DNA from: a virus
Virus record (IMG/VR): IMGVR_UViG_3300035661_000010
Direction: 5' to 3' (one strand)
Length of the DNA: 64,000 nucleotides
The notes below the pieces were generated by a model. The model was given only the letters and a program-made list of their open reading frames with translations. It was not told the DNA's origin and searched no databases. A program made the position numbers and the translations under genes. Below are positions 4,100 through 34,075 of the stretch, one piece after another (position 1 is the stretch's first letter; each line of letters begins with the position of its first letter).

Positions 4100-4135
4100 G
4101 AGCAGGATTGGGCAGACTGAGCGAAGGAGAACGTC

Positions 4136-6197: not shown

Positions 6198-6199
6198 TC

Positions 6200-6520
6200 A
6201 TGAAGTCGAAATTCGAGCTACTGCGCGAATCGTCCATGATGCCGCGCCCCGCACACGTGTCTCCGGGAGACCCGGTATTCGTACCGTCGATGGGCAAGGG
6301 TCGTGTGACGGCCGTGACCGCGGGGAGCTGCTGGATTCACTTCGATAAGACGGTCGACGACTCTGGTCAGTCTTCGAGCACGTGGACGTCTACCGCCGCG
6401 CTGATCGCCGACCTCGAATGGAGAGATGGTCGTTGGTACATGGAGCCCAACAAACTCGGCTCCTCTGGCGACGGACCTGGAGCGGAACGATTCTGGGGCG
6501 CACTACCTCCAGGTCAGTAA
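6200..6520 (+). CDS. Hypothetical protein, possible SH3-like fold; candidate internal head protein
   Basis: PGDPVFVPSMGKGRVTAV pattern; N-term ...LLRE|S. Confidence 0.55.
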   Translation: MKSKFELLRESSMMPRPAHVSPGDPVFVPSMGKGRVTAVTAGSCWIHFDKTVDDSGQSSSTWTSTAALIADLEWRDGRWYMEPNKLGSSGDGPGAERFWGALPPGQ

Positions 6521-6607
6521 GACCGCTTCGCTACCCTGCATCCGAAACCTGGTATGGTTGGGCCATTGCAACCTGTCTGGTAAGGTCATCTCTAGGAGAC
6601 GTTCTCG

Positions 6608-7168
6608 ATGAAGAACCTTTCGGCGCTCAAGAATCTGGTCGAACGAGGTGAAGCGGTCCCGACCGATGAGGACGAGGTGCCGAAGAAGCCATCGTCACGC
6701 TACATCGGCGACGTTCTCGACACGCTCATCGCAAGCCGTCATCTTGGCGTCGACGAGGTCGATGATGCTGCCTCCGCGATTGCAAGCAACGCGGAAGACG
6801 GATACGAAGCCGTCGTCGATGCGCTGATCAAGAAGGGCCATGTCCCCGGAAGCAAGCTGATCGACGGTGGTCATCGACGTCTTCGCGAGAAGGTCCGCGG
6901 CGCGATGCGTGAGATGGTCGAGCGCGGTGCCCGCTCGATGCTGGAAGAGGCTCGTGGTCGTCGCAACATGACCGAGCGTCAGCGGACCATCGCCGAACGA
7001 ATCGAGGAAGCGTTCCGAGAGAGCGTTCACGACGTTCTCAAGGCGGAGGGGTACGCTCCGCTGGATGTGGATCAGATGACGGCCGAGGTTCGTTCGCGCA
7101 TCCGCGGGATCGCCAACCGGATTGCGGTCGAGAGTGGCAAGCGCAGCATGCGTCCGTTGAGGGACTGA
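6608..7168 (+). CDS. Hypothetical helical protein; candidate internal head protein
   Basis: SD AGGAG; N-term MKNLSALKNLVE|R; several internal LxE sites. Confidence 0.6.
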   Translation: MKNLSALKNLVERGEAVPTDEDEVPKKPSSRYIGDVLDTLIASRHLGVDEVDDAASAIASNAEDGYEAVVDALIKKGHVPGSKLIDGGHRRLREKVRGAMREMVERGARSMLEEARGRRNMTERQRTIAERIEEAFRESVHDVLKAEGYAPLDVDQMTAEVRSRIRGIANRIAVESGKRSMRPLRD

Positions 7169-7171
7169 TCC

Positions 7172-7672
7172 ATGAAGAGTTTGTTCGAGAGCGCGATGGG
7201 CCTCGTCGAAGAGATCGTCGGCGCCAAGTCGATGGACGAGAAGACGCAGCTCGCTGTGCTTCGTGTCGTCGTGTCTCTCCGTGTCGCGTACATGATCCAC
7301 CAGAACAACCACTGGGTCTCGATGGGTCCGAACTCCTATGGTGACCACCGGCTCTTCGAGCGCCTGTACAAGATGTCTCAGGAGGACGCCGACTCCATGG
7401 CAGAGCGACTCGTTGGTCTTGCAGGGACGGAAGCGATTTCGTTCTCGAAGCAGATCAAGATGATCGACAAGGCACTCGAAGGCGCATCGAACGTCGACCC
7501 GGCCTCATCGTCGCTGCAAATCGAGAAGCAATGCGTCGATGTCATCGACGATGCGCTCAAGGTCGCAGCGGAGGCGAAGGGCCTGACGACCGGGCTCGAC
7601 GACCTCTTGCGTGGACTGAGCAGCAACCGAGAGCAGGCGCTCTATCTGCTCAAGCAAAGGAGTCCCGGGTGA
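7172..7672 (+). CDS. Dps/ferritin-like protein
   Basis: HQNNHWVSMGPNSYGDHRLFERLY...DSMAERL matches the Dps HW-x-G-x-F/Y-x2-H-x-LFE-x-Y...D-x2-AER ferroxidase signature. Confidence 0.8.
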   Translation: MKSLFESAMGLVEEIVGAKSMDEKTQLAVLRVVVSLRVAYMIHQNNHWVSMGPNSYGDHRLFERLYKMSQEDADSMAERLVGLAGTEAISFSKQIKMIDKALEGASNVDPASSSLQIEKQCVDVIDDALKVAAEAKGLTTGLDDLLRGLSSNREQALYLLKQRSPG

Positions 7673-8010
7673 GCGCACTCGATGATCTCGCAGAGCTGGA
7701 GAAGCTGACGAAGTCGCCGAAGACCTCGCGTCGTCCATGCTCTGCTCGAACGATCGAATCTCGGAGAGCGGCCCGTGCCAAGACGTCGGTGTCTCTGGAG
7801 TCGCTCATCGAAGACCTTGATGACAGGGCTGCGCCGATGACGGTCCTGCGCATGGTGGAGGCTGCTGGCGTAAAGTTGTCGAAGCCGCTTACGGAAGCGA
7901 TTCGTCGAGGCGACACGGACATGGCCCGCGTGCTGAAGAGATTCACCGACAAGATTCGGGAGGCCGTGTCATCGGCCGCCGAAGAGACGATAGACGAGCT
8001 GACGAAATGA
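7669..8010 (+). CDS. Hypothetical protein; candidate internal head protein
   Basis: GTG 7669 overlaps the previous stop (GTGA), SD AAGGAG; N-term MSALDDLAE|L. Confidence 0.55.
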   Translation: MSALDDLAELEKLTKSPKTSRRPCSARTIESRRAARAKTSVSLESLIEDLDDRAAPMTVLRMVEAAGVKLSKPLTEAIRRGDTDMARVLKRFTDKIREAVSSAAEETIDELTK

Positions 8011-8510
8011 GCGCGTTCGAGAATCTGCGCGCGAACGACAAGAGCGAGTTCCAGTTCGAAACACTGGCCCTTCGCTATCGACGTCTCGCTCGAGACTATG
8101 CGTCGGTGTGCAGGTCGGCCTTGTCCGATGGAGCTATCTGGGACGGGGTCGGCAAAGGTGCGTCGCAGGCGTTCTGGTTGAAGATGCTGGAGCTGGAGCA
8201 CAAGCGCGAAGGTGTTCGTGTTGGCGTTCTTGGAGACATGCTCAACTCTATCGAGACAGCGAGCGAAGACGACGACCTGGTGGAGCTCGTCATCCGGTTC
8301 GCCGAAGACCAGCACCTTGGACCAGAGAATGCGCAGATCGCACTTCAGGCGGAGATGCTTCGGCAGCTTGCTGTCACCGGGATTTCGCTCCTGAAGAAGG
8401 AGGCGTACGGGGACGTCATGGGTCCGTACTCGGACCGCGGCCCAAGCGAGAGCGCGCTTCTGAAGGCGAAAGAAGTCCTGCGGAAAGCCGTGGAGCTCGA
8501 TCAGCGATGA
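8007..8510 (+). CDS. Hypothetical helical protein
   Basis: ATGA overlap with both neighbours. Confidence 0.55.
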   Translation: MSAFENLRANDKSEFQFETLALRYRRLARDYASVCRSALSDGAIWDGVGKGASQAFWLKMLELEHKREGVRVGVLGDMLNSIETASEDDDLVELVIRFAEDQHLGPENAQIALQAEMLRQLAVTGISLLKKEAYGDVMGPYSDRGPSESALLKAKEVLRKAVELDQR

Positions 8511-8854
8511 GAATGCCGAAGGGTTTCCATCCGCTTGATGAGTCGACAGCCGGAGCTGTCGATGATCTGTGGGCGCATCCGTACCCGTCCTATACGCCTG
8601 ATCCACGCAAGAAGCTGGGGCTCGGGAGCGTCGACTGGTTTCAGAATGTCGTCGGATTACCGGGTGGTGTGGGCTTCGCCGCCGAAGACGATGATCCGGT
8701 CGAGCGCTTACGAGCCGAGGCCGATGCATGGGGACTTGCGTACGGTCAAGAACCGGAGGACCAAGTTTCTGTTCAGAAACGAGAACGCGAAAACTCGAAG
8801 GTTGAGTTACTCCGAAGTAAGGTGAAGAACATCAAGTACAACCAACCGTACTGA
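8507..8854 (+). CDS. Hypothetical protein
   Basis: ATG 8507 overlaps the previous stop; N-term MRMPKGFHPLDE|S. Confidence 0.5.
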   Translation: MRMPKGFHPLDESTAGAVDDLWAHPYPSYTPDPRKKLGLGSVDWFQNVVGLPGGVGFAAEDDDPVERLRAEADAWGLAYGQEPEDQVSVQKRERENSKVELLRSKVKNIKYNQPY

Positions 8855-8876
8855 TCAACCAGGAGAGAGAGCGATC

Positions 8877-9818
8877 ATGAGCACGACAGTCAATTGGATT
8901 TCCGGTGACGACATCAAGATGTTTGGATCGACGCTCGGCCTGAGCAACCAGTCCGTCTCGGTGAGCACGGCACGCCTTCAGGCAGCCATCCTCGGTACGT
9001 CGAAGAAGGACGCAGAAGACCTCCAGAACCTGAAGGTTCACCTCAACAGGTCTCTGTTGACGGTGACCGTCAACGGTGTGTCGTGCGCCACGAAGGGTGC
9101 GTTCCTCGCCGCCATCGCGAATCTCGACCAGGCGGAGGCGACTGACCTCGCGTCCCAGGTCGCAGGCGAGGGCGCGAACAAGGTCGGCGTCGCGAACGTC
9201 GACAAGCTGTACGTGTCGATGGAGGTCGAGGATGCGATTGCCGAGGTCGCTCGTCAGAATCGCCTTCGCAACGTGCGCGCCGTGGTCCAGTCGAACGTGG
9301 CTTCCCTCGCCGCGTGCTCGACGACCCAGGACGGCATCACCCTCGTCGCGGGCGACACCGTTCTCCTCGTCGGGCAGACCACGGCCGCGGAGAACGGCCC
9401 TTACTTGGTCGGTACGCCGACCGCCGGCAACGCTGCGCTGACACGTCCGGGTTGGTGGAAGGCCGGGTACTCGGTTCCGGATGGCTTTGAGTTCATCGTG
9501 GCAACGGACGCGACCAGCGCCACCGCGATGGCGAAGTGGAAGGCCACCGGGCACGGCAAGGTCGTTGGCACCAACGATCCGCTGATCTATCCGGTCCAGA
9601 TCAAGGGCTCGGTTGCGCTGACCTCGGCGACACCGTCGACCGCGTCTGTCGCTTCGCTGTTCATCGCCGCTGGTGCGAAGGCGTACCTCACGGAGACCAC
9701 GAACCAGGCAAACAGCACCCTCAAGGCGGTTCTCTCGGTTGGTCAGGGCAACGGCTCCCTCGCCATCACCGGCGCCGCGACGAACACGGACACGATCGGC
9801 TACCTCATCGTCAACTGA
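8877..9818 (+). CDS. Virion structural protein (head/collar fibre-like)
   Basis: NVRAV...DGITLVAGDTVLLVGQTTAAENGPY is a motif common in phage fibre/decoration proteins; Ala/Thr/Gly-rich; strong codon bias. Confidence 0.65.
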   Translation: MSTTVNWISGDDIKMFGSTLGLSNQSVSVSTARLQAAILGTSKKDAEDLQNLKVHLNRSLLTVTVNGVSCATKGAFLAAIANLDQAEATDLASQVAGEGANKVGVANVDKLYVSMEVEDAIAEVARQNRLRNVRAVVQSNVASLAACSTTQDGITLVAGDTVLLVGQTTAAENGPYLVGTPTAGNAALTRPGWWKAGYSVPDGFEFIVATDATSATAMAKWKATGHGKVVGTNDPLIYPVQIKGSVALTSATPSTASVASLFIAAGAKAYLTETTNQANSTLKAVLSVGQGNGSLAITGAATNTDTIGYLIVN

Positions 9819-10781
9819 ATGCAACTGGCCTCTCTCCTCGTTCTCGAAGCCATGGTGCTTCCGAATCCACCTCCGGACTCGGAAGTGGTCAAGAAGCGCC
9901 GTGGCTTCATGGTTGCGCTCGTGGTGCCACCGGAGATGGAGGAGGAGGTTGCTCGTGCAGGCGGATGGGCGGGTGGAGAGCGTACTTGGTCGGATCCTCT
10001 CCACTGCACGGTCGCGTACGTCATGGATCCGGATCGAAATCTCGCCGCGACCACGGAGATCGTCCGTCGCGTTGCGAAGCAGATCCCGAGCTTCAGTCTG
10101 GTGACGACTCGAGCGGGGTTTTTCCGGAACGAGGAGAAGGATGGCGCCCTCGTTCACTACTGCGGGTGTGCGGCCCCCGAGCTCGATGCGTTCGTCGGGC
10201 TTCTCAGGCGAGAGCTTGATGCTGCGCACATCGAGCACGACACGAACCACCCGCTCTACGTTCCACACATCACGCTGGAGTACGTCGAGAGTCCTGATGA
10301 GATGGAACTGAGAGAGCGACTCCTTCGCTCTACGCAATCGCTAGCGACTCGGTTCGTCCCGACACTGGCCGTCGTGAACGACGATCAGCGGGACGACATT
10401 TCATTCTCGTCTGAAAGTTCGACGCCGAACTGGCAGGGGTCTCCGGATATGGGGTCGTTGGTCACTGGGCTCGGCGAGGCGCTCGATGCTGTTCTGGAGG
10501 CGGACCCGGTGACCGGGAGAAGCTCGCTCCACAAGCACATGGTCGCCGCTGTCTACAAGTCGCTGAGGAAGCGCGGATCGGCCACGAAGGATGCCGCCAC
10601 CGGAGCCTTCAAGATCACGAACTCGAACCTGAAGAAGAACGGCTATCAGGGCAAGGGTGATTCGGGTCGTCTCACCGGAAGTGGTGCGAACCGATCGAAG
10701 AATCACGCCGCCGAACCTGCTGGCGAACGCGCGAAGAAGGACAAGGACTACGCAGCGGTCAAGAAGCTCGCGACCGCGTGA
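9819..10781 (+). CDS. 2H phosphoesterase, Acb1/T4 gp57B-like, with a basic C-terminal extension
   Basis: Two HxT motifs: PLHCTVAY and YVPHITLEY; N-terminal GFMVAL strand; layout resembles T4 57B (GLYVAA...HSTICY...YTPHITLSY). Confidence 0.8.
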   Translation: MQLASLLVLEAMVLPNPPPDSEVVKKRRGFMVALVVPPEMEEEVARAGGWAGGERTWSDPLHCTVAYVMDPDRNLAATTEIVRRVAKQIPSFSLVTTRAGFFRNEEKDGALVHYCGCAAPELDAFVGLLRRELDAAHIEHDTNHPLYVPHITLEYVESPDEMELRERLLRSTQSLATRFVPTLAVVNDDQRDDISFSSESSTPNWQGSPDMGSLVTGLGEALDAVLEADPVTGRSSLHKHMVAAVYKSLRKRGSATKDAATGAFKITNSNLKKNGYQGKGDSGRLTGSGANRSKNHAAEPAGERAKKDKDYAAVKKLATA

Positions 10782-10897
10782 CGTAGCTACCAGGTAGTGA
10801 TACTCGTAGATGAGCGGTGGTTCGGTTGCTGGCGTGTACCGAGACTACGGTGGTAGGTTTAGAAAACGCGTTGGCAGTCGCATCAGGAGAGAAAAAA

Positions 10898-11257
10898 ATG
10901 AACCTTCGTATCGGTGGAACCCTCTCAAGTCGTTCGAGTCAGGCTCGTGGTCGTCAGATGGTCGCGAAGCGCCGTACGGCACAGGTCGAGAACAGCAGGG
11001 TGCCCCACGGCTTCCCGGGCAATGAGGAGCTGTACAACCAGTTCTGTGCGCGCTCCGGGATCTCCGATCAGCGCGTCGAGCAGGCGGAGACAGCTGCGGC
11101 CATAAAGCGGCTCACGGCACGAATGGAGCGCCTACACGAGGGCATGGAGGCTGCTCGTAAGTCGGGCAACGTCAAGAAGGCCCAGCACCTCTTCGTCAAG
11201 CTCAGCGAGTGCATGGTCGCGTACGGCGCATCTCTGGAGACGATGCTCATAGGTTGA
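10898..11257 (+). CDS. Hypothetical protein
   Basis: SD AGGAG then ATG 10898 (MNLRIGG...); C-terminal helical hairpin. Confidence 0.55.
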   Translation: MNLRIGGTLSSRSSQARGRQMVAKRRTAQVENSRVPHGFPGNEELYNQFCARSGISDQRVEQAETAAAIKRLTARMERLHEGMEAARKSGNVKKAQHLFVKLSECMVAYGASLETMLIG

Positions 11258-11261
11258 GCCG

Positions 11262-11777
11262 ATGGGTACGCTCATCGGCGACAAGGATGCGGACTTCTTC
11301 GACGCGCGAGTCCGAGAGATCAACCGGCTCGCGGGAACGTGTGCGATCACGTACTACGCGCTCAACTTCGAAGCGACCCCGAAGGATCCGCTCTACGGTG
11401 AGCCGATTGAAGAGATTCATGTCAGAGACCCGCTGAGAGACACGCTCGGGATCGCCTTCAGTGGGCTCCTGGAGTATCCGGAGCAAAGCGTTCGGACTGG
11501 CGAAGAAGGACAGCACGCGGACTACGACGCGTCCCTCTGGCTTGCGCGCAAGGACTTCGAGGAAAAGTTCCCGATCCCCAACGCACCAAAGGGCACGCCC
11601 TGCGCACGACAGCCAAAGGTCGGAGACGTCATCCAGGTCCAGGATCGCTACTACGACGTCATGGCGATTGACGCGCAGGGCCAGTTCAACGACACCATCG
11701 CGCGACACGCCAACTGGCTATTGAAGTTGAAGCATCGCACGGAGTTTGATGCCCGCCGCCGGCTGGAAGGAAAGTAG
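11262..11777 (+). CDS. Head-closure / neck protein (T4 gp14-like)
   Basis: REINRLAG..ITYY..DPLYGE and PKVGDVI..DRYYDV motifs. Confidence 0.7.
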   Translation: MGTLIGDKDADFFDARVREINRLAGTCAITYYALNFEATPKDPLYGEPIEEIHVRDPLRDTLGIAFSGLLEYPEQSVRTGEEGQHADYDASLWLARKDFEEKFPIPNAPKGTPCARQPKVGDVIQVQDRYYDVMAIDAQGQFNDTIARHANWLLKLKHRTEFDARRRLEGK

Positions 11778-11779
11778 TC

Positions 11780-13225: not shown

Positions 13226-13664
13226 GGGCCTACAGATCATCATCCCGAAGAAGAAGCCGCTCTTCAGGGTCATGACGTCGATCGATCCGTCGAAACTGGA
13301 GGCGGTGGCTCTCGAGCCTGTGGGCATTGGTCCCATGGATCCGCTGACCGTCGAAGCACACAAGGCGAAGTACAAGCTGTCGATGGTGTGTGCGAACTGC
13401 ACCCATTGGTACGAGGGCGCGGAACGTCAGTCCAAGGTGTCCAACGGAGATCCAAGATGCTCGGCCACGAGCCCGTGTGGCGGCCTTGCTGTTCGACGCG
13501 GCTACCCTGAGTACAAGGGGCCGATGACGGACGAGTATCTGGAGCGTCATTGTGTTGTGTGTGAAGAAGAGGCTCCGAGGTCGGTCTCAACGCCTGATGG
13601 AAAGCGTCGCGGCTACTGCACAAGGCACCTCGAATCGGCGATGAAGCTTCTTGGAGGCATGTGA
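13212..13664 (+). CDS. Cys-rich zinc-binding hypothetical protein
   Basis: CANCTH, C..PC, HCVVC, YCTRH motifs. Confidence 0.55.
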   Translation: MTSGKGLQIIIPKKKPLFRVMTSIDPSKLEAVALEPVGIGPMDPLTVEAHKAKYKLSMVCANCTHWYEGAERQSKVSNGDPRCSATSPCGGLAVRRGYPEYKGPMTDEYLERHCVVCEEEAPRSVSTPDGKRRGYCTRHLESAMKLLGGM

Positions 13665-14065
13665 TGTCGAACGCGCGCTTTGGACGAATCACCCTTGGTC
13701 TCGACTTCGGTACGACGCTCGCGCGATCGCAGAAGCAGTTCTATCGAGACAAGTTTCTGGACGCGCAAATGGTCAACGACTCGCTGGAGTCCGGTGACGT
13801 AGCACCGTCGTCGTCGGTTTCGGTCAGTCTTGGCAAGCTCACCACTGTGAACGCGCTGTTCATCGAGGTCTCTGGGCCGCTCGAGGTTCGTCTCAATGGC
13901 GCAGGAGCAGGCCCTGTTCTTCAGGCGCTTCCTGGGGCAACGATAGATGGTGCGGTGTCCACCATGGCACGCCTGTACCTGGAGGGAGCGATCACTGGAA
14001 TCACGTTGGTGAATGCGTCATCGACCGAGCCCGTGGACTTCACCGTCTATATGGCAGGAGGCTGA
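13664..14065 (+). CDS. Hypothetical beta-rich structural protein
   Basis: Beta-strand pattern; TGATG overlap. Confidence 0.55.
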   Translation: MSNARFGRITLGLDFGTTLARSQKQFYRDKFLDAQMVNDSLESGDVAPSSSVSVSLGKLTTVNALFIEVSGPLEVRLNGAGAGPVLQALPGATIDGAVSTMARLYLEGAITGITLVNASSTEPVDFTVYMAGG

Positions 14066-14067
14066 TC

Positions 14068-14430
14068 ATGAACAATCTTCGAGAGACGGCGTTTGCGTTA
14101 CTGGACGAAGAGATTCGCACGATCTCTCCAGTGCCAAAGAAGCGTGAAGCGGACATGGGCGGGTCTGGCGATGCGCACGAGGTCGACTGGGCCGACGTAA
14201 GCGACGTCGTCAAAGAGTCGACCAAGCAGGCATTCGAGAACACCGTACAGGAGTCGCTTTCGAAGCTGGAGATGGATCAAGTCGACGAGGCTCACATGCC
14301 GATCAAGGACCTGCCCGAGTACCGATTGGCCCAGGAGGCGTCCGAGGAGCTTGGTAAGGCGGTCACCGCTCTGATCAAGAAGGCGCACGACGAAGGCATG
14401 ATCACGAAGATGGGACAGACGGAGATCTGA
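14068..14430 (+). CDS. Acidic hypothetical protein; candidate internal head protein
   Basis: SD AGGAGG; N-term MNNLRE|TAFALLDE|E. Confidence 0.55.
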   Translation: MNNLRETAFALLDEEIRTISPVPKKREADMGGSGDAHEVDWADVSDVVKESTKQAFENTVQESLSKLEMDQVDEAHMPIKDLPEYRLAQEASEELGKAVTALIKKAHDEGMITKMGQTEI

Positions 14431-14432
14431 AC

Positions 14433-14993
14433 ATGTCCTCGATGGAAGAGTTGAGGCGTCTCAGCGTGTACGAGGGTCCGCTCGACCAGTCGATGACGGC
14501 CAAGACCCTGTACCAACAGCTCTCGACCTTTGGTCCGTTCAAGGGCTGGAAGGAGAAGAAGTGGTTCGAGTTCGCTCAGGACGTGAAGTCGAACGACCTC
14601 TTGCCCCAGGTCTTCTCGGGGGCGTTTGCTGCATTTGTGAGGTGGATGGGGCCGAACGCAGGGAAGCTGCCGGCTACCACCGCGGTGCTCGCGCAGACGG
14701 GTCTTCGCAGCGACAGGTACGATGCCGAGAAGCTGGCGGGAATCATGTCGAGCTCAGAGGTTCTGGAGCCGATGGAGGTCATCGGATCCAAGGTTCTGAA
14801 GTACGGCTACTCGACGACGCCCGCAGAGGCGAAGCGAATCGCTGCGGATCCGAAGTTGAAGGTCGTGATCTGGATGCCAGGTGAAGGCGCACGACAGTTC
14901 ATCGCTCTTCTCAGCAAGTATGGGATCAGCGCTCACCTGAAAGAGGGATCGACTGCGCTCCCGCCGTTCCTGTCGCGATGGGACGAGAGATGA
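14433..14993 (+). CDS. Hypothetical protein; candidate internal head protein
   Basis: N-term MSSMEELRRLSVYE|G. Confidence 0.55.
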   Translation: MSSMEELRRLSVYEGPLDQSMTAKTLYQQLSTFGPFKGWKEKKWFEFAQDVKSNDLLPQVFSGAFAAFVRWMGPNAGKLPATTAVLAQTGLRSDRYDAEKLAGIMSSSEVLEPMEVIGSKVLKYGYSTTPAEAKRIAADPKLKVVIWMPGEGARQFIALLSKYGISAHLKEGSTALPPFLSRWDER

Positions 14994-14994
14994 G

Positions 14995-15807
14995 ATGTTC
15001 GACGTCAAGGCCACCGGAACTGCGGAGCTGAAGAAGCTGATCAAGGAGTACGAGAAGCGCTCCGAATTCGTGCGTGAGTCGATCGTTCGAGCAATGGCAG
15101 AGGACATGCTCGAAAACATCAAGAGAAGTCTTCCGTCGAGCTTGGGTTCAGAGGTGAAGGAGTACGTCAGCTCGCTCGAGATCTGCGAGTACAGAACGAA
15201 CCCGAATCAGCGAAAGTCGATTGTCTCGATCAGGTCGAATCCAAAGAAGGTGAAGCTGAGCGAGAAGCCGGAAGACAAGACGGCGGTCTATGTGGCTCCG
15301 AAGGCAGAAAGCAATGGGCGCGTGTCCGCGGTGACGATGTTCTTGTTCAAGAACGGTCCGTGGACCAAGGACACTCTCCCTATGAAGCCGCCAGCGGATG
15401 CCCGTGTCTTCTACATGGTCGCCTCGAAGGAGGAGATCGGACACCTGAGGGAGAGGATCAGGGTCAACGAACCGAGCTGGAGGCCACTGCTGTCCAGAAT
15501 GGGCGTGAAGATGTCGAAGCCGTCCGACGTCGACAATATCGAAGCGCTTCCGAGCGTCGCGATGGTTGGTCTGCGACTGGAGTTCGGGTTGGCCGGGTAT
15601 CCGTTCAAGCCCCACTGGCGTCCTGCGATCCGCAAGCTTCAGCAAAACCTGAAGAAACTCTTCGACAAGAACAAGGATCGCAGGAGGTCTTTGACGGATT
15701 CGAAGTTCAAGGGATGGAACAAGACCTTCACGAAACTGCCGGTGATAGACCTTAGCGACCGGGCGATGTATTCTGACTTTGCAAAGAAAGTGGTGTCCCA
15801 GCAATGA
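14995..15807 (+). CDS. Tail completion / neck-1 protein (HK97 gp10-like, with insertion)
   Basis: N-term V.TG.AELKKLI and C-term LEFG...PFKPHWRPA typical of the HK97-gp10 family. Confidence 0.6.
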   Translation: MFDVKATGTAELKKLIKEYEKRSEFVRESIVRAMAEDMLENIKRSLPSSLGSEVKEYVSSLEICEYRTNPNQRKSIVSIRSNPKKVKLSEKPEDKTAVYVAPKAESNGRVSAVTMFLFKNGPWTKDTLPMKPPADARVFYMVASKEEIGHLRERIRVNEPSWRPLLSRMGVKMSKPSDVDNIEALPSVAMVGLRLEFGLAGYPFKPHWRPAIRKLQQNLKKLFDKNKDRRRSLTDSKFKGWNKTFTKLPVIDLSDRAMYSDFAKKVVSQQ

Positions 15808-16277
15808 ACGCGAACAAGCGAACCAGCGCTATGAACGTAGCTGCAAGCAGACTGCGACGCGGCCTCTTCGAGGACTCGCGCGACAGTGCGGAGCCGATGC
15901 CACGTGACATCGTTCAGCAAGTGCTTGCGGACATCGCTCGCGGTGCGACTGCTCCGATCATCGACCAGGACATCAGGGTCGGCCTTGGCGGCGCAGCGTC
16001 GGGCACGATGGTGACAGGCGTACCGGGCGGCCTCGACGGTTCAGAAGCCTCGATCGAGGTGAGGGTCGAAGTTGGTGGCGGCAACATCGAGTTCATGATC
16101 AACGGAGCTGTCGTGGCCACGTGCCGCTCGAGCCTCCAGGGGTACAACCGCGCGCTCTCGGATGTGCAGAAGGCCATCGAACTCGCGCGCATCGACGCTA
16201 CGGACCAGTCGAATCGACTCTCGGCCACCCCGAACTACGGGAACATGTTGCGGGGGCGGCTCGGCGGCTCGTACTGA
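15804..16277 (+). CDS. Hypothetical protein; candidate internal head protein
   Basis: ATGA overlap; ...LRRGLFE|D near the N-terminus. Confidence 0.5.
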   Translation: MNANKRTSAMNVAASRLRRGLFEDSRDSAEPMPRDIVQQVLADIARGATAPIIDQDIRVGLGGAASGTMVTGVPGGLDGSEASIEVRVEVGGGNIEFMINGAVVATCRSSLQGYNRALSDVQKAIELARIDATDQSNRLSATPNYGNMLRGRLGGSY

Positions 16278-16280
16278 TCG

Positions 16281-17054
16281 ATGCCGAAGCTCTCTCCCGA
16301 AACCCCTGACCATCTCGTAGGAGACACGTTCGTTCGTGACTACGACCTCGGGATCGTGCAGAGGCTCGGCGGGGTCGTCACCGGAGAGCATTTCTTCACC
16401 AAGGTGACAGGTGTCGAGTATCCGGACTTTCCGGACGACTTTCCTGTAGTCGCTCTGCGCCGGACCATGATGCCGGGCGTTCCTATCACGTTGGCTGCAC
16501 CGAACGATGCGACCGAGTACTGGGTGAACCCCAGCATCATCGTGCGACGCCAGGATCCTGTACCGGCCATGGAGAGATGGCAGGCCGGTCAGAAGCTGAA
16601 GTACGTGCGACCTGCGCCCGGTGCCGCCCCTGTGACCGTTGTGCTCTCCAAGGGCATGGATCGCAAGACGGGCAAGGTTGTTCAGAGGACAGCTACCGGG
16701 TACGACGCCTACGAGACGAAGCCGCAGCCGTGGCCGTTCGACATTCCGTACACGATTCTATGTCGCGCAGAAGGAAACAGGGCTGAGTCCCAGGCTCAGA
16801 GCCTGCTTAGGCACATCATGAAGCGGTTCCCGCCAAGGGATAATCTGGACGTTACCGATTCACTTGATAGCGTAGACGGATACGGGATGTTCGTGGATGG
16901 CCCAACCAGCCTCTCAGAGGCGATGGACATCGCGCATCGAGTACGTGGATGGTCGTGGTCGGTTCGTGTTCTGGGTTATCTTGACATTGACGACCCGACA
17001 GTTGAGAAAGCAGTTACGAAGCCTGCGACCGTAAACCCGGCCCAGCAAAAGTGA
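16281..17054 (+). CDS. Tail terminator / sheath stabiliser (T4 gp15-like)
   Basis: PSIIVRR and PQPWPFDIPYTI motifs; located just upstream of the sheath gene. Confidence 0.6.
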   Translation: MPKLSPETPDHLVGDTFVRDYDLGIVQRLGGVVTGEHFFTKVTGVEYPDFPDDFPVVALRRTMMPGVPITLAAPNDATEYWVNPSIIVRRQDPVPAMERWQAGQKLKYVRPAPGAAPVTVVLSKGMDRKTGKVVQRTATGYDAYETKPQPWPFDIPYTILCRAEGNRAESQAQSLLRHIMKRFPPRDNLDVTDSLDSVDGYGMFVDGPTSLSEAMDIAHRVRGWSWSVRVLGYLDIDDPTVEKAVTKPATVNPAQQK

Positions 17055-17069
17055 TCGAAGGAGCTGACG

Positions 17070-17561
17070 ATGGCAGACGAGAACCAGGTTGCGGCGCCCA
17101 AGACAGACGAGAAGCCGAAGAAAGAGCGTACGGATTGGCCGCGGAAGTTCCGAAACTTCGCGCCCGGCCCTCTTGCTCTGGAGACCGTCACGCATGGCGG
17201 CATCTCGCTCGGTGGCAAGCAGACCATCTGGCTCTGGTCGGACGACTACGCGATGGAGCTCGTTCAGCATCACATCAGGCAGGAGCTTCTGGCCCCCTGG
17301 GAAGATGGTGAGGAGCAGCCGAAGCGTCCGACCGCGATGCCGTCAAATGGCACCGTCGATCTGTCCAAGCTCGATGCAGTGCCTGGTCTCGTGAAGGGTC
17401 CGGATGGAGAAATGGTCCAGGCGTCTCAGACGCTCGGAGCAGTTCTCACGGAGGAGGGCTCGAAGAACGAGCCGCCTCCCGTGAACTTCGCACCTCCGGG
17501 CGGTTCCGGTGGTGGTGAGGAAGCCGACAGCGGCCCGACTTCCAAAAAGAAGCGGGGATGA
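17070..17561 (+). CDS. Hypothetical protein (pre-sheath small protein with disordered tail)
   Basis: SD AAGGAG; position typical of small pre-sheath genes. Confidence 0.55.
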   Translation: MADENQVAAPKTDEKPKKERTDWPRKFRNFAPGPLALETVTHGGISLGGKQTIWLWSDDYAMELVQHHIRQELLAPWEDGEEQPKRPTAMPSNGTVDLSKLDAVPGLVKGPDGEMVQASQTLGAVLTEEGSKNEPPPVNFAPPGGSGGGEEADSGPTSKKKRG

Positions 17562-17611
17562 CGCGCGGCGAGTTCTGAGAATCCTGGCGGATCACAGGGC
17601 GGAGGAGAGTC

Positions 17612-19825
17612 ATGGCTAACAAGAGCGCGAAGGTTACGATCGAAGAGCTGCCGGCGGCACCGGGAGCGATTGAGGGCGTTTCGACGTCCACTGTCATCAC
17701 TGCTGGGTGGACGAAGCGAGGCCGCACCGACGTCATCGTCAGGGCAGGAAGCTACGCCGAGGTCGAACAGAAGACGGGGACGTTCTGGAAGAACTCGTAC
17801 ATCGCCTATGCGCTGAACGGCTTCTTCAACAACGACGGTCAGAGCGCGTACATCCGTCGCGTGACGCCGTCTGACGCAGTAGCCGCGAACCTTACGTTGG
17901 CCGATGCCGCAACTGCGGCCGTGTTCATCGGACGCACCTTCGCGACGACTTCGATCACGACCCTGTCGGCGTCAAAGTACAACATGAAGTTCACGGTGAA
18001 CGCCTTCACACCGACCACGGTCGACGTGACTTCGAATGCTGGCGTGTCTGGCTCATACCTGTTGTCGGCGATTGTCACGAACATCAACACGGCGATGGCT
18101 CTCGTGGACGTGTCGCTCTCCAACTTCGCGTCGCTGATCACGCAGGTCACGAGCGCTGGCGTGCGGTACCGCATCCAGCTCACATCTCCGACGACTGGCG
18201 CCGCATCGCAGATCGCATTCACTGCCCCGGTCTCGGGCGGGTGCAGCCTGGAGCTGTTCGGGATCGTCTCGACGGACCTACCGAAGACTGTCCTCGGCCA
18301 AGCTGCCGTGGCGAGTCGCTTCACGGTCACTGCGCTCGGCGCAGGTCTTTGGGGCAACGACATCCAGATCCAGATCGTCGGTGACCCGAACTGGAAGACC
18401 TCGACTGGTGGCTGGACCAAGTTCGACGCCATCATCAACGAGGAGCTGGACGGCAACAACAAGTTCACCACGCGCGAGACCTATTCGGAAGTCGTCCTCG
18501 ATGTCGACACCGACCCGGCGTTCATCGCTGGGTACATCGGAGCTCGCTCGAGCTACGTGACGGTGACGGAAGGTGTCGGGTACGGCATCCCACGCACCCT
18601 CGTACCCGTGTCGATCACGAAGGAGTTCCTTGGTGACGCAGTCGGCAACGCGTCGCTCACGACCTTTACTGGTCGCCTGATGAACCTGCCGAACCGCAAG
18701 AACGTCACCATCACCACGACCCTCACCGGTGCGATCAGCGTGAACGTGACCGACAACGGTACTGGGTCCTTCTCCGGAACGGGCGTGTCGTCTGGCACGG
18801 TCGACTACATGACCGGCGAGATCAGTATCACGTTCTCCGCAGCTCCGACTGCTGGAACCCCCGTCTACGTGGCGTACACGACCACGGCTAGCGACACAGT
18901 CACGTACGATCTGGCAAGCGGTACGGATGGCACTGGTCCTCTGGGTCGTTCAGACGTCACCGATCCGTCGCTAGCCGCGACGAAGGGTGGCATCTATCTG
19001 TTCAACGACATCACGGATGAAGTGCTCAACGTCATCCTGCCTGACTTCGCAGGCGTGCTGTCGGTGCACAACGACCTGATCTCCTGGGCAGAGACGAGGA
19101 AGGACATCTTCGTCATCCTGGATCCGGCGGCCGGGCTCGATGCCGCCGGCGTGGTCACGTACCGCAGGGACACGGGCGCGTTCAATACGTCCTACGCCGC
19201 GCTGTACTGGCCGTGGATCAAGACCGCAGACAGCCTCGCGAATGGAGCGCCCAAGAACGTGCCGCCCTCTGGACACGTGGCGGGCGTCTACGCACGGACC
19301 GACTCTACGCGCAACGTCGCCAAGGCGCCCGCTGGCGTCACGGATGGTCGACTCGTCGGAACCCTCGGGTTCGAGCGAACGATCTCCGAGACCGATCGTG
19401 ACACGGTCTACCCGACTGGCGTCAACCCAATGATCGGCGAGCGCCAGACGGGCCGAGCTGTCTGGGGCGCCAGGACGCTCTCGCTCGACAAGCGCTGGCG
19501 CTACATCCAAGCGCGCAGATTCTTTCTGTTCGTCGAGAAGAGCATCTTCGTCAACTCGTGGTGGACGGTCTTCGAGACGATCGGTCCGGAGCTGTTCAGT
19601 CGAATCCAGACGAACGTCCGCGGTTTCCTCCGCGGCCTGCTTGCTCAGGGGTACTTCCCAACCAAGAAGGAGGAGGACGCGTTCGCGGTCGTGGTCGACA
19701 ACACGAACAACGACGACAACTCCTCGCAGAACGGCGAAGTCATCATCGACACGTTCCTCGCAACCACGACCCCAGGCGAGTTCATTCGCTTCCGGTTCCG
19801 TCAGAAGATCGCCCTCGCGGCGTGA
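17612..19825 (+). CDS. Contractile tail sheath protein
   Basis: SYAALYWPWI, VPPSGHVAGVYARTD, VAKAPAG, VWGARTL, WRYIQARR, PGEFIRFRF motifs. Confidence 0.95.
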   Translation: MANKSAKVTIEELPAAPGAIEGVSTSTVITAGWTKRGRTDVIVRAGSYAEVEQKTGTFWKNSYIAYALNGFFNNDGQSAYIRRVTPSDAVAANLTLADAATAAVFIGRTFATTSITTLSASKYNMKFTVNAFTPTTVDVTSNAGVSGSYLLSAIVTNINTAMALVDVSLSNFASLITQVTSAGVRYRIQLTSPTTGAASQIAFTAPVSGGCSLELFGIVSTDLPKTVLGQAAVASRFTVTALGAGLWGNDIQIQIVGDPNWKTSTGGWTKFDAIINEELDGNNKFTTRETYSEVVLDVDTDPAFIAGYIGARSSYVTVTEGVGYGIPRTLVPVSITKEFLGDAVGNASLTTFTGRLMNLPNRKNVTITTTLTGAISVNVTDNGTGSFSGTGVSSGTVDYMTGEISITFSAAPTAGTPVYVAYTTTASDTVTYDLASGTDGTGPLGRSDVTDPSLAATKGGIYLFNDITDEVLNVILPDFAGVLSVHNDLISWAETRKDIFVILDPAAGLDAAGVVTYRRDTGAFNTSYAALYWPWIKTADSLANGAPKNVPPSGHVAGVYARTDSTRNVAKAPAGVTDGRLVGTLGFERTISETDRDTVYPTGVNPMIGERQTGRAVWGARTLSLDKRWRYIQARRFFLFVEKSIFVNSWWTVFETIGPELFSRIQTNVRGFLRGLLAQGYFPTKKEEDAFAVVVDNTNNDDNSSQNGEVIIDTFLATTTPGEFIRFRFRQKIALAA

Positions 19826-19840
19826 TGAAGCGGTCGACTG

Positions 19841-19870
19841 GAGGCGGGTCATAACGGCCCGCCTCTGTTT
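19841..19870 (+). terminator. Probable intrinsic terminator after the sheath gene
   Basis: GAGGCGGGTC-ATAAC-GGCCCGCCTC followed by TGTTT (short U tract). Confidence 0.6.
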
Positions 19871-19888
19871 GATCGACAATGAGGAACG

Positions 19889-20527
19889 ATGAGCAACCTG
19901 GAAGCACTGCGTCAGTTCGTGGAGTCGTCGAAGTACTCGAAGTCGTACACGGACTACGCACGCCAGCAAGCGGACAAGGCGATGGAACTCGCCAAGCAGC
20001 GCGCCCCAGCACCGTTTCATGGAAAGTCGGCGATCCCAAGTGCGCCGGTCAAAAGCAAGGCGTCGAAGTACGACGTCATCGCGGAGCTCGAAGAGGAGGC
20101 TCCCGATCCGTACAAGTTCATCGTAAAGTGTGGGATCAAGAACGGAGGCGCCCGCGGCTGGATCTCGCTGACTATCGTCGGGCACCACGACACGAATCCC
20201 AAGGATCTGCTTCAGTGGCTGAAGGAGGTCTACGAACTGAGTGGTGCCGCAACACTTCCCAGCCCCGGCTCTACGATCGCTCTCCCGTACCGTGAGCTGA
20301 CATCGAAGGGCAAGTACGGCCCCGCCATGAAGGCCGCCAACTGCTCCGAAGTTACGAAGCTGTTCGACGAGGTCGATGCGTTCGTGACCATGATGGAGCG
20401 ACGACCGGACCTCGCAAAGGAGCTGGCCGACGAAGTCGATGGTGAACTCCTGAACTCTGGGGACCTTCGCTGGACGTTCTTGGGTGTGCTGAACAAGCCG
20501 CCGCCGAAGTCAAAGGATCCGTGGTGA
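19889..20527 (+). CDS. Hypothetical protein inserted between sheath and tube; candidate internal head protein
   Basis: SD GAGG; N-term MSNLEALRQFVE|S. Confidence 0.6.
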   Translation: MSNLEALRQFVESSKYSKSYTDYARQQADKAMELAKQRAPAPFHGKSAIPSAPVKSKASKYDVIAELEEEAPDPYKFIVKCGIKNGGARGWISLTIVGHHDTNPKDLLQWLKEVYELSGAATLPSPGSTIALPYRELTSKGKYGPAMKAANCSEVTKLFDEVDAFVTMMERRPDLAKELADEVDGELLNSGDLRWTFLGVLNKPPPKSKDPW

Positions 20528-20627
20528 GGCGTTATCTGGACCTGATTCGTCTTTCTGAAGTAGATTTGGCTCGTAGGTCACCAGCGGGTAGAATGAACCG
20601 GGCTAGGAACCGAGAGGAGTAACGAGG

Positions 20628-21092
20628 ATGGCGCGCAAGAGGCAAGACGACTTCATCCAGAGTTTCCGGTTCCACGTGGTGGAGCCAACGGGGACGTTCC
20701 TGACGGCGACTGCTGGGTTCAAGACTGTCACCGTGCCCGACAAGAGCCTCGCTCCTGCCGAGTATCGCGATGGCCTCACGCTCTACACGGTGAAGCAACC
20801 GGGTATCCCGACAATTGGTACTGCGACGTTGGCCCAGGGCGCGACCAAGAAGCAGTCCGAGTTCTTCAAGTGGATGAAAGCGTGTGCCGAGGGTGCCGAG
20901 TACCGAGCGGACCTCCAGATCGTCGTCCACGACAACTCGAACGTCTCGCCGCCGAACGTCGTCAAGGAGATCGATCTGTTCGAGTGCTTCCCGCTTCGCA
21001 ACAAGCCGATTGGCGACCTCGACTCCACGAACTCCGAGATCAACGTCCGCGAGCTCGAAGTTGCTGTCGAGCAGTGGGAAGAGAAGACCTAA
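20628..21092 (+). CDS. Tail tube protein (T4 gp19 / Afp1-like)
   Basis: FRFHV..AGF...EYRDG..KQPG..ATLAQG..FFKW...GDLDS..EI.VRELEV. Confidence 0.9.
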   Translation: MARKRQDDFIQSFRFHVVEPTGTFLTATAGFKTVTVPDKSLAPAEYRDGLTLYTVKQPGIPTIGTATLAQGATKKQSEFFKWMKACAEGAEYRADLQIVVHDNSNVSPPNVVKEIDLFECFPLRNKPIGDLDSTNSEINVRELEVAVEQWEEKT

Positions 21093-21118
21093 CGGCACTC
21101 GTGCCCTGAAAGGGTGAC

Positions 21119-21733
21119 GTGGCCAAGAAACGCGACCTCGATCTCCTCCAGGATTTTCGGTTCCATCTGTTCGATGTGAGTCCGAAGATCCCAAGCCTGT
21201 TCCCGTTCGTGCTGAACCCGTCGATCGGGTTCTCGATGGTGACGGCTCCGTTGCTCAGCCTTGACAAGGCGACTATCACGCCAGGCAACGCGTACTACCC
21301 GCACAAAGTCATCAAGCGCGGCACGCCGAACACGCTTGTCTGTCAGCGTGGCGCGTACCTCGAAGACGGAGACTTCTGGCGCTGGTACCTGGCAGCGTTG
21401 ACGGGCGAGAGCGGGTCGCTGAATGCGATTTCGGGGGCGCGCCGAAACCTGCTGCTCGTTCACTTCTCGCTGAAGGGCAACGGGATCCTGTCGTCGTACA
21501 ACCCGGCACGCGTCGCAAGTACCGCCAACCTGGCTGGCGCGGGCCTGAGCCTCGCCTCGGCGGAAGCGTTCGGCTTCATCGGTCGCATCCCATCGCGAGC
21601 CTGGCTACTGTACGACTGCCAGCCGGCCGGGTACCGTCCAGCGAGCGATCTCTCCGCATCGAGTCCGGCCATCTCGCTCCGCGAGCTTCAGCTCGACTAC
21701 TCTGACATCGACGAGATCGACCTGGGGTTCTGA
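21119..21733 (+). CDS. Second tail tube protein (Afp5-like, with insertion)
   Basis: DFRFHLFD..GFS...QRG..DFWRW..RRNLLL...AWLLYDCQP..DLSA..ISLRELQL. Confidence 0.8.
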   Translation: MAKKRDLDLLQDFRFHLFDVSPKIPSLFPFVLNPSIGFSMVTAPLLSLDKATITPGNAYYPHKVIKRGTPNTLVCQRGAYLEDGDFWRWYLAALTGESGSLNAISGARRNLLLVHFSLKGNGILSSYNPARVASTANLAGAGLSLASAEAFGFIGRIPSRAWLLYDCQPAGYRPASDLSASSPAISLRELQLDYSDIDEIDLGF

Positions 21734-22611
21734 TGAAGATAGATCTGAAAGCGACCGTGCTCGAGGAAACCAAGCGAGCCCTTCGTGATGAGGATGGGTT
21801 TGGCGCAGGGACAATGTCCGCCAACGTCGCGCCAGACGTTTTGGTGGCGCCGTCGACCCCGAAGAGTCGCAAGGATGAGGAAGAGGGCAAGAGTCCGATT
21901 CTCGGCATCGTTCGTCGCACGTTCCCTGAAGCCATCGACGGAATGGTCGGCGAGGTGGAGTGTCCGAGCTGTCATGCGGTGCAGGGCTTTCCGGACGACA
22001 CCCAGGACGAGGTGGCTTGCGAGAAGTGTGAGCAGAAGTTCTTCGTGCCCGAGAGTGTGTCTACGCAAGCGATTGCGAGCGTGAAAGAGTCGCTGGGCGA
22101 CATCGATCTGGCTGGGAAGCTTCCACCGAACACGCTCAAGGTTGACCCGGTACAGCAGACGACCCAGTTCTGTGGCCCGGCTGCCCTCGCATGTCTCCTG
22201 AATTTTCTCGGCCTCCACACGACCGAACTGGAAGTGTCGGCCGCTGCCGGCGTGACTGCCGACAAGGGCTGCACACCAGAGGGCCTGGTGGATGCAGCAA
22301 AGTCCTTTGGGCTCGATGCTGAGTACAAGCAGAACGGCACGAGCGCCGACGTGGAGCGCTTTGTGGAGCAGGAGCGTCTCCCGCTTCTGTTTTTCTGGTG
22401 GGGACATGGCCGGCGTGGCGATGGTCTGCACGTGAGCCTGGTGGTCGGTTGTGATGACAAGAGCGTGATCATTATGGATCCGGAGCCGGGCCTGGTTTTG
22501 CCGAAGCTTTGGACGAGCTTCCTGGAGACATGGTTCACCTTTTCGACGCCGACACCATCGGCGGACGGACTTCGTCTCGGCGAGTACCTCGTCATCAAAC
22601 CGAAGCCATGA
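21733..22611 (+). CDS. Zinc ribbon plus C39-like cysteine peptidase
   Basis: CPSC/CEKC zinc ribbon; QQTTQFCGPAALACLL (Q-x5-C), LHVSLVVG (His), IMDPE (Asp). Confidence 0.8.
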   Translation: MKIDLKATVLEETKRALRDEDGFGAGTMSANVAPDVLVAPSTPKSRKDEEEGKSPILGIVRRTFPEAIDGMVGEVECPSCHAVQGFPDDTQDEVACEKCEQKFFVPESVSTQAIASVKESLGDIDLAGKLPPNTLKVDPVQQTTQFCGPAALACLLNFLGLHTTELEVSAAAGVTADKGCTPEGLVDAAKSFGLDAEYKQNGTSADVERFVEQERLPLLFFWWGHGRRGDGLHVSLVVGCDDKSVIIMDPEPGLVLPKLWTSFLETWFTFSTPTPSADGLRLGEYLVIKPKP

Positions 22612-22664
22612 AGCAAGCTCACTAGACTTCTGAGCGAGCCTGCGCTCGGATGTACACTGTGAGC

Positions 22665-34067: not shown

Positions 34068-34075
34068 GAGATCCT

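Follow-up and report, generated by a model that had tools for sequence, protein, structure and literature searches.

Candidate T4-type capsid-targeting leaders on variable proteins among the neck and tail genes of an uncultured myovirus

Why should a series of small, mutually unrelated genes, scattered among the neck and tail genes of a phage, all begin with a short peptide that ends in a hydrophobic residue, any residue and glutamate? This question is raised by positions 6200-22611 of a 64,000-nucleotide stretch of viral DNA (IMG/VR record IMGVR_UViG_3300035661_000010; "the window" below means this whole stretch), which is the virion-gene region of an uncultured myovirus of ~150-160 kb with a T4-type head. 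The analysis supports the presence of a T4-type head-maturation system in the window, comprising a protease of the gp21 family and a capsid protein of gp23 type whose propeptide site, [LI]-x-E, is conserved. By analogy with T4, we consider it likely, if far from assured, that the short leaders are capsid-targeting and processing tags, which would load unrelated small proteins into the head and be cut by this protease. Judged by their sequences, about eight to ten open reading frames (ORFs), interleaved among the neck and tail genes of one operon, are candidates for such tagged cargo. The window genes discussed below, from the protease to the peptidase that follows the tail tube genes, all lie on the plus strand, and the cargo candidates are named by their first nucleotide.

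The maturation system provides the framework for this reading. Specifically, the ORF at 172..1821 joins a prohead protease of the T4 gp21 family (residues ~18-265) to a scaffold-like C-terminal half; it matches Pfam Peptidase_S77 at 2e-14 and phrog_207 at 2e-40, and aligns to the T4 gp21 structure 5jbl at 1e-9. His89 and Ser144 (H89, S144), which we take to be the catalytic residues, are invariant in seven lineages (alignment A5). The next gene, at 1885..3408, encodes a gp23-like major capsid protein (Pfam Gp23 at 5e-61) with a predicted propeptide of residues 1-77 (nt 1885-2115) that ends in VLSE/D, where the slash marks the presumed cut, as it does below. Across four lineages of ~50% identity Glu77 never varies; it is embedded in [LI]-[SH]-E/[DAS]-T and lies 13 residues before the part that can be aligned to mature T4 gp23 (alignment from residue 90), while the stretch upstream of it bears a weak likeness to the T4 gp23 propeptide (KW..L..G.GL...ENQ) that is not significant alone (1 bit). 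The protease ORF itself holds 20 [LI]xE sites against 7.2 expected from its composition, 14 of them in residues 283-537, the coiled C-terminal half, a pattern like that of the T4 scaffold gp22, which is much cut (PMC9026906). Two features, the conservation of the motif at the end of the capsid propeptide and its roughly threefold excess in the scaffold-like domain, suggest as the most likely specificity of the protease a cut after the glutamate of [L/I (V/A/M tolerated)]-x-E. The N-terminus of the protease carries such a site in three lineages, as ITE-9 (in the window), LIE-10 and LLE-9, and the analogous site of T4 gp21 is LIE-9 (PMC9026906). The original prediction, made from the letters of the window, had pointed to similar sites in the protease, the scaffold and the capsid protein; the scaffold site LLSE/G is indeed present, at residue 512 of the protease ORF and not in a separate gene. 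The protein families that it had named hold throughout in Pfam (172-1821 Peptidase_S77, 1885-3408 Gp23, 7172 ferritin/Dps, 9819 2H and 21733 Peptidase_C39).

The leaders that this protease would cut have a common pattern without a common sequence. They are 6-14 residues long and end most often at residue 12; they are poor in Pro and Gly (p 0.005), amphipathic (p 7e-4) and followed by disorder-prone sequence (p 0.03), in a test that is partly circular. Within a genome the protein bodies behind them show no relation to one another, and most of them are missing from other lineages. A likeness between leaders is seen in two cases, namely 6608 and 19889, which are identical at 7 of 12 residues (in peptide, not in DNA), and 6200 and 7172, which both begin with MKS.FE. 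Recent swapping of leaders between genes was considered and is unsupported, the DNA identity of the leaders being no higher than background. All of the N-terminal peptides first quoted for these genes translate as written, and the ORF starts are backed by ribosome-binding sites or by stop/start coupling, with alternative starts for 6200 (at 6290) and 14433 (GTG at 14466).

Is the motif more frequent here than elsewhere? The strict form was defined as [LI]-x-E with the glutamate (P1) at residue 5-16, the loose form admitted any of LIVMF at P3, and expected counts were taken from internal windows of the same proteins; one rule of gene calling gave 99 genes in the window. Between 6200 and 22611, the strict motif is found in 8 of 24 ORFs (2.5 expected, p 0.001) and the loose one in 11 of 24 (4.8 expected). 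In contrast, only 4 of the 69 downstream ORFs carry the strict motif (Fisher p 0.0017), and in the tape-measure and baseplate block at 22.6-46 kb, whose genes are late too, there is no excess (1/29). The comparison of cargo with tail and early ORFs that the original prediction had called for thus comes out in its favour, as does its remark that the motif is mostly missing from the N-termini of tail and baseplate genes. Taken for the window alone, the excess is suggestive and not decisive; its replication in relatives settles the matter.

IMG/VR and metagenomes contain such relatives, at 41-54% capsid identity; one of them (G001) is a complete genome of 153 kb. There, the motif occurs in 8 of 23 ORFs between capsid and tail tube (p 0.001) and in 11 of 21 ORFs before the portal (p 2e-7), while tail, replication and early genes (6/37, 4/51 and 11/73) stay near the 11% background; an N-terminal excess of the phiKZ-type motif S/A/G-x-E is absent from this genome. 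On a 78-kb contig of a second relative (G004), 16 of 31 capsid-to-tube ORFs carry the motif; among tail genes the count is 0/27 and among pre-head genes 5/27 (Fisher p 2.4e-5). Across eight further non-redundant lineages, 30 of 90 ORFs after the capsid gene carry it where 10.4 are expected, with a p value of 4e-9 that is somewhat optimistic because some matches are paralogous leaders or shared orthologues.

The relatives also have leader families of their own. In G001 (L009-L016, reverse-complemented; 33160-41082 and 45957), proteins of 100-550 aa encoded before the portal have a tighter leader, roughly M-x-x-I-I-E-x-I-R-x-x-A-G-L-E-P. In G004 (L047-L050; 39422-44595 and 51345) and in L026 (10932-16014), two leader families recur on non-homologous small ORFs: type A reads M-[SN]-L-R-x-R-[GSN]-Y-[LM]-x-E, and type B reads M-x-L-x-x-[VI]-N-x-L-L-x-E, followed by a second L-x-E ~7 residues on.

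Orthologues offer a view of which parts of a leader are retained. The most useful source is L055, a 5.6-kb contig that is syntenic with window positions 5433-11262 at 30-57% identity. The candidate at 6200..6520 (106 aa, also called as a gene by the caller of the Joint Genome Institute) begins with MKSKFELLRE/S (nt 6200-6229) and its L055 orthologue with MSKFEQLRE/D; the leader is identical at 7 of 9 residues, and the linker behind it differs by an indel of 16 residues. The alternative start of 6200 at 6290 is less likely because the operon is tightly packed. The candidate at 6608..7168, an all-alpha protein of 186 aa, has the leader MKNLSALKNLVE/R (nt 6608-6643), and its orthologue has MSKLEELRMLEE/G; of the leader only M1, L4, L7, L10 and E12 are kept, and the linker at residues 13-31 has diverged (alignment A6). 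The AlphaFold2 (AF2) model of 6608, at low confidence (a two-row alignment; mean predicted local distance difference test score, pLDDT, 57), gives a helix at residues 2-12 and coil at 13-29, and at this pLDDT it was too poor for a fold search. When residues 1-40 of 6608 were modelled together with the scaffold-like half of the protease ORF, the complex scored 0.41, and the best of three controls 0.00; at least 62% of contacts are common to the runs, and the pLDDT of the partner is at least 50. The mark applied to such predictions is passed by 58 of 80 solved complexes and by 2 of 110 mismatched pairs, and passing scores of 0.60 or below include 7 of the 80 solved complexes and both of the passing mismatches, so that this model gives weak support to a docking of the 6608 leader on the scaffold-like half.

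In the same stretch, the motif is repeatedly kept at a site that has otherwise changed. The candidate cargo or core protein at 7669..8010 (113 aa, basic; GTG start with AAGGAG upstream) begins with MSALDDLAE/L (nt 7669-7695), and its L055 orthologue has LDE-7 instead of LAE-9; the motif is kept and shifted. The 167-aa ORF at 8007..8510 lacks the motif in the window (MSAFENLRA..), and its L055 orthologue carries it, with the N-terminus MNFDADSSFELLRE/Q (..SSFELLRE/Q); the window N-terminus is possibly a degenerate leader. The candidate at 8507..8854 (115 aa) has the site ..GFHPLDE/ST (nt 8507-8542) at the end of a non-helical leader with both Pro and Gly in it. In L046, L054 and P0009 the site still reads L-[DH]-E/[ST]-T, and in L055 it is FVPVE/ST. 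Genes without a leader in the window, namely 8877, 10898 and 11262, also lack it in their L055 orthologues; negatives stay negative.

The candidate at 7172..7672 shows how a leader may have been placed in front of a known enzyme. This gene encodes a Dps-like mini-ferritin with the leader MKSLFE/S..GLVE/E (nt 7172-7210). It exceeds the cut-off of the Pfam Ferritin model narrowly (24.7 against 24.5 bits) and matches phrog_3636 at 5e-10. The ferroxidase-centre residues H47, H59, E63, D74 and E78 align to those of Dps 1n1q, fit the Dps pattern H-x11-H-x3-E ... D-x3-E and are invariant in eight homologues (alignment A4). As such, the proposal of an iron-sequestering Dps stands for the family, and the iron-sequestering part is backed solely by the intact Dps ferroxidase residues. 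The leader of the L055 orthologue, MDLKTFALSLLE/S, cannot be aligned with that of the window, and the motif is kept at residue 12 (LLE-12). The leader of 7172 looks added, because three of seven homologues start directly at helix A, without an N-terminal extension, and the two homologue contigs examined (P0066 and P0063) have non-structural neighbourhoods.

The candidate at 9819..10781 is a putative polyprotein in which the leader MQLASLLVLE/A (nt 9819-9848) precedes a 2H phosphoesterase domain (residues 28-200). The domain matches Pfam 2_5_RNA_ligase2 at 1.8e-10, and all 57 homologues share H62, T64, H150 and T152, which make up both HxT motifs. The AF2 model (pLDDT 85) places the first site within a helix of residues 3-13. 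Foldseek identifies a 2H fold, with CPDase/LigT as the best match (E 4e-7) and, lower in the list, viral enzymes that act on cyclic GMP-AMP (cGAMP) or as 2'-5' phosphodiesterases (a poxvirus cGAMP phosphodiesterase, rotavirus VP3) and a phosphodiesterase of a Burkholderia phage; the sequence itself has zero matches in the PDB. An earlier assignment of this protein as a nuclease acting against the cyclic-oligonucleotide-based anti-phage signalling system (CBASS) is not sustained, as there is no match to PF23474 (Acb1) at E <= 0.01 and the structure is closest to the generic CPDase/LigT. Of the 57 homologues, 15 match the Pfam Acb1 model, and an anti-CBASS function is only one of several possible 2H activities for 9819. 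Homologues are often fused to head proteins, with an XkdF protease domain in 11 of the 57, Portal_Mu in 4, Phage_portal in 3, a P23-45 portal in 1 and MuF in 1. Fusions of this kind have been read as packaged and injected effectors, possibly acting on RNA or breaking down defence nucleotides (PMC5512222).

The leader of 9819 is part of a block, ..L-x-x-x-E/A-x-V-L, that every close orthologue has and solo 2H enzymes lack. P0002, P0005 and P0006 retain Glu10, and the L055 orthologue keeps only Glu10, with Ala at P3. In P0004 and P0009, a domain like that of 8507 is fused in front of the 2H domain and the block survives as an internal ..L-x-x-x-E/A junction; the P0009 fusion also includes the basic C-domain. 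The window keeps 8507 and 9819 apart, as individual genes on either side of 8877. In five of six orthologues of 9819, another [LIV]-x-E stands ahead of the conserved C-domain, and in the window the disordered linker between the 2H domain and the helical C-domain (residues 201-233 in the AF2 model) holds VLE227/A (nt 10491-10499). To judge from these sequences, 9819 is probably a polyprotein that is also cut at VLE227/A, and the behaviour of its leader site fits both a targeting peptide and a polyprotein cleavage site. The Lys/Arg-rich helical C-domain (residues 234-320, nt 10518-10778; ..LHKHMV.AVY.SLRKRG...LTG.G..RSK.H..EP..) occurs in at least four other lineages, always just upstream of an 11262-type gene and usually as a protein of ~160 aa that has nothing but a leader before it; it may be an internal protein that binds DNA.

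Taken together, the regional excess, its replication across the clade, the retention of the motif while linkers diverge and its survival as a fusion junction support leaders that behave as a selected signal. Of the T4-like targeting and cleavage N-terminus that was originally proposed, the maturation system and the behaviour of a selected signal are borne out, and the packaging role is assigned by analogy. Six genes (6200, 6608, 7172, 7669, 8507 and 9819) are well supported by sequence as putative tagged cargo; they rank highest because the motif or the site glutamate is kept in orthologues (in 8507 and 9819, P3 is not conserved).

Further candidates lie downstream. Three of them have good leaders and are plausible. 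The acidic 120-aa protein at 14068..14430, with an AGGAGG ribosome-binding site and the leader MNNLRE/T..ALLDE/E (nt 14068-14109), obtains the top score from a position-specific scoring matrix (PSSM) trained on relatives only. The basic 186-aa protein at 14433..14993 (GGAG ribosome-binding site) has the leader MSSMEELRRLSVYE/G, ending ..RRLSVYE/G (nt 14433-14474), with Val at P3 and a resemblance to the type A leaders of relatives (..R-R-x-Y-L-x-E/G). The third is the ORFan at 19889..20527 (212 aa), with the leader MSNLEALRQFVE/S (nt 19889-19924) and Phe at P3; it has zero homologues in 5.8 billion clusters, and the Atlas gave no usable match. Two more candidates are weak. At 15804..16277 (157 aa), the site ..SRLRRGLFE/D has its glutamate at residue 23, outside the 5-16 zone; the leader resembles type A, and the start is coupled to the upstream stop (ATGA). 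An alternative start of 15804 at Met10 was ruled out, as no ribosome-binding site precedes it. At 21733..22611, a C39-type cysteine peptidase, weak to plausible as a candidate, begins with MKIDLKATVLE/E, followed by a disordered zinc-ribbon N-region (residues 1-134 in all) and the C39 domain (residues 141-253; Pfam Peptidase_C39 at 7.6e-11); the ComA peptidase domain can be aligned with it at the Cys of CGPAALA and the His of ..GLHVSLVVG. At the corresponding position after the tube genes, relatives have a leader-bearing small ORF (MGLRKRAYLAE/I, MSLRKRGYLSE/L). The initial figure of about 12 cargo ORFs was therefore generous, with about six well supported, three plausible and two weak.

The proposed mechanism follows T4. 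From the capsid gene to the tail tube, lineage-specific and mutually unrelated ORFs begin with a putative tag, followed by a flexible linker and a body. Within the growing prohead, the tag, an amphipathic helix of 6-14 residues free of Pro and Gly, would attach the protein to the scaffold core. Subsequently, the gp21-like protease would clip the leader after its glutamate, and the mature protein would stay in the head with the DNA. Delivery into the host, which the original prediction had placed ahead of all transcription, would be a further step beyond packaging.

Several observations weigh against this reading, and some of them would suit an origin of the motifs by chance or composition. Small late proteins with helical N-termini rich in Glu and Leu could match a short motif, and the block had been picked by a reader. 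The background per N-terminus is 10% for the strict and 18% for the loose motif, and therefore 2.5-5 of the listed ORFs could be chance matches; once the free choice of the block is corrected for, p is about 0.05 in the window alone. Clear false positives exist, in the sheath of the window and in gp13 neck orthologues of relatives. Within the region, variable ORFs carry the motif more often than conserved ones at p 0.07 (9/17 against 2/11). A PSSM trained on the leaders of relatives separates the window candidates modestly (p 0.003-0.03), and such matrices add little beyond P1 and P3. Nevertheless, chance is disfavoured and appears very improbable, since the expectations came from internal windows of the same proteins, the motif is not in excess among late tail and baseplate genes or among small early ORFs, the result is replicated in the relatives, and orthologues keep the motif although the leader around it has diverged or been replaced. 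Other points concern the mechanism. The leaders have no single conserved sequence of the kind found in T4 IPII and IPIII and no DNA-level similarity to one another; P3 varies (V, F, A, M) in 9819, 14433, 19889 and orthologues, so that a specificity looser than that of T4 is required; and, in an uncultured phage, every functional step is argued by analogy. For 7172, injection is doubtful because a folded Dps dodecamer could not pass the tail channel; the assembled dodecamer might act inside the head instead.

If the leaders are a selected module, what are they selected for? They could serve another role, bound by an assembly chaperone or a modifying enzyme or acting as a degradation or regulatory tag of late accessory proteins. 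Conservation shows selection and not its target, 14068, 14433, 19889 and 21733 lie among tail genes, and P3 is not always L or I, all of which would suit such a role. We regard it as unlikely: the invariant hydrophobic-x-Glu is the motif found at the capsid propeptide boundary and at the protease N-termini and enriched in the scaffold-like domain, the leader survives in fusions as an inter-domain junction, as expected of a cleavage site, and a candidate partner enzyme is absent from the module. A tag for recognition by a radical-SAM enzyme, in particular, is unlikely, given leaders that share a pattern only, that end in the protease motif and that have no enzyme of this type near them. The location among tail genes has a precedent, as the internal-protein and alt genes of T4 also lie outside the head cluster and alt adjoins baseplate genes (PMC5512222). 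Alternatively, the tagged proteins might enter the prohead and be cut there, and mostly be accessory scaffold or core proteins like T4 gp67 and gp68, which are degraded and expelled or form internal structure, without constituting a delivered enzyme kit. With 5 [LI]xE sites in its 113 residues against 1.6 expected, 7669 would fit this description, as would several candidates that are small, helical and without a recognisable enzyme domain, and a Dps dodecamer could act in the head and never leave. Dense internal sites are found only in 7669, however, and three candidates keep their catalytic residues (the Dps ferroxidase centre, both 2H HxT motifs and the C39 Cys and His), while the hypervariability of the bodies between lineages suits arms-race cargo better than structural core proteins. 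An explanation by core proteins for most of the set is thus quite unlikely, and the loading of tagged cargo by a T4-type mechanism remains the explanation that we favour.

The surrounding genes place the candidates in the genome. The phage has 60% G+C. The first 46 kb of the window form a single co-oriented virion operon, and the window DNA is also present on contigs of up to 159 kb. A megablast search with 24 kb against 50,697 phage records returned zero matches, and the capsid protein reaches an identity of about 25-30% at most with cultured phages in the record collection. The gp13-like neck protein at 5433..6197 (PF26809 Phage_T4_gp13, phrog_211) is kept in nine lineages and has no leader, and neither do the two gp19-type tail tube genes at 20628-21092 and 21119-21733 (Pfam Phage_T4_gp19). 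The tail sheath (17612..19825; Pfam Phage_sheath_1) has an N-terminal ..VTIEE, which was rejected as a leader and which the original prediction had not claimed; the sheaths of relatives share (P)G(V/L)(Y/F)(I/L/V)xE at this place. Genes for the tape measure, the baseplate hub and wedge proteins follow from 24088 onward.

Some neighbouring genes merit a record of their own. Directly after the capsid gene, 3438-4043 and 4136-4687 encode two paralogous, beta-rich proteins of ~190 aa without a leader, which are kept in 6-7 other lineages and have no Pfam or PHROG match; they may be decoration or vertex proteins. The 313-aa product of 8877-9818, also leaderless, sits among the leader-bearing ORFs, matches PHROG families of head-decoration and fibre-like type (phrog_2647 at 3e-11) and differs in length between relatives. 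Between the tube genes and the tape measure, a 127-aa ORF at 22650-23033 has weak matches to Arc/ribbon-helix-helix repressors (phrog_876 at 1e-4) and may be a regulator, or else a tail assembly chaperone to which similarity has given the wrong label. The locus L021 extends the window by 10 kb upstream and includes, just upstream of it, a T4-type, gp20-like portal (Portal_T4) and a 521-aa core-like protein. At 2538-4601, L021 also encodes a 687-aa protein with the N-terminus MKILLEELDNL. Several relatives, too, have a protein of similar length before the portal; the L021 protein may be the large terminase, in which case its N-terminal L-x-E would be a chance match.

If the leaders work as they do in T4, the cargo of an uncultured lineage would become readable from its sequence, with each tagged ORF a candidate for a head-internal or co-injected protein. 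Co-injected proteins are the first phage proteins to meet the defences of the host, and three enzymes with intact active sites, together with several ORFans, would be candidates for counter-defence or genome-protection functions. A conserved tag logic combined with hypervariable bodies would extend the picture of T-even internal proteins to distant relatives, and the short natural tags could be tried for the loading of proteins into capsids. A bolder claim is that one third to one half of the capsid-to-tube ORFs across the clade are swappable cargo with a protease-clipped tag, including an active Dps-type ferroxidase in a DNA-filled head; this we put forward as tentative and rather doubtful. 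Encapsulins offer a comparison here, in that a short terminal peptide directs enzymes, ferritin-like proteins among them, into a shell of the HK97 fold. Their signals are mostly C-terminal and uncleaved, their shells work without DNA, protease or tail, and they have no sequence relation to the leaders of the window. If the claim were true, a Dps-loaded head would be a phage counterpart of ferritin-loaded encapsulins, in which Dps protects the packaged genome from iron and peroxide damage or is delivered with it.

How, then, does this system compare with those already described in phages? In the giant phages phiKZ, 201phi2-1 and SPN3US, gp21-like proteases (gp175 / gp245) act on the motif S/A-x-E or A-x-E (PMC5694885, PMC9026906). 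There too, many head proteins are processed after Glu by a remote relative of gp21, at multiple sites per propeptide, and the propeptides are inferred to direct proteins into the prohead (PMC5694885, PMC9026906). In contrast to the leaders described here, which have T4 length and a mostly hydrophobic P3, those propeptides mostly exceed 100 residues and have a small P3 (S/A), although Ala is found at P3 in some orthologues of 9819. Polyvalent proteins and fusions with MuF or portal proteins likewise include enzymes predicted to be packed into the head and delivered with the DNA, with 2H as a recurrent domain (Iyer, Burroughs, Anand, de Souza, Aravind 2017, PMC5512222). In the window, each enzyme is instead a separate small gene with a putative cleavable leader, and not a domain of a structural or giant protein.

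The closest parallel is the capsid-targeting sequence (CTS) of the T4 proteins IPI, IPII, IPIII and Alt. In T4, gp21 cuts at an L/I-x-E motif, and within the 10-residue CTS residues 4 and 7 serve targeting while residues 8 and 10 direct processing (PMC9026906, PMC3012670); the diverse internal proteins of T-even phages share only the CTS, and the enzyme Alt is packaged likewise (PMC3012670, PMC9026906). The window shares with this system an S77-family protease, the logic of a cut after Glu in L/I-x-E, and a leader of ~10 residues on unrelated, fast-evolving proteins, with Alt as the precedent for enzyme cargo. Even the hydrophobic positions 4 and 7 are kept in the 6608 orthologue pair, and the N-terminal site of the protease itself, ITE-9, corresponds to LIE-9 in T4. 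The differences are that the leaders of IPII and IPIII are identical and that of IPI is similar, whereas those of the window share a pattern only, vary from 6 to 14 residues and admit V, F, A and M at P3; that the protease is fused to a scaffold-like domain; and that the putative cargo genes are interleaved in one operon. No new principle is opened, because the mechanism is the textbook one of T4. What is new is that a distant, uncultured clade appears to belong to it, with tagged hypervariable ORFs interleaved through the neck and tail genes and Dps, 2H and C39 proteins among them.

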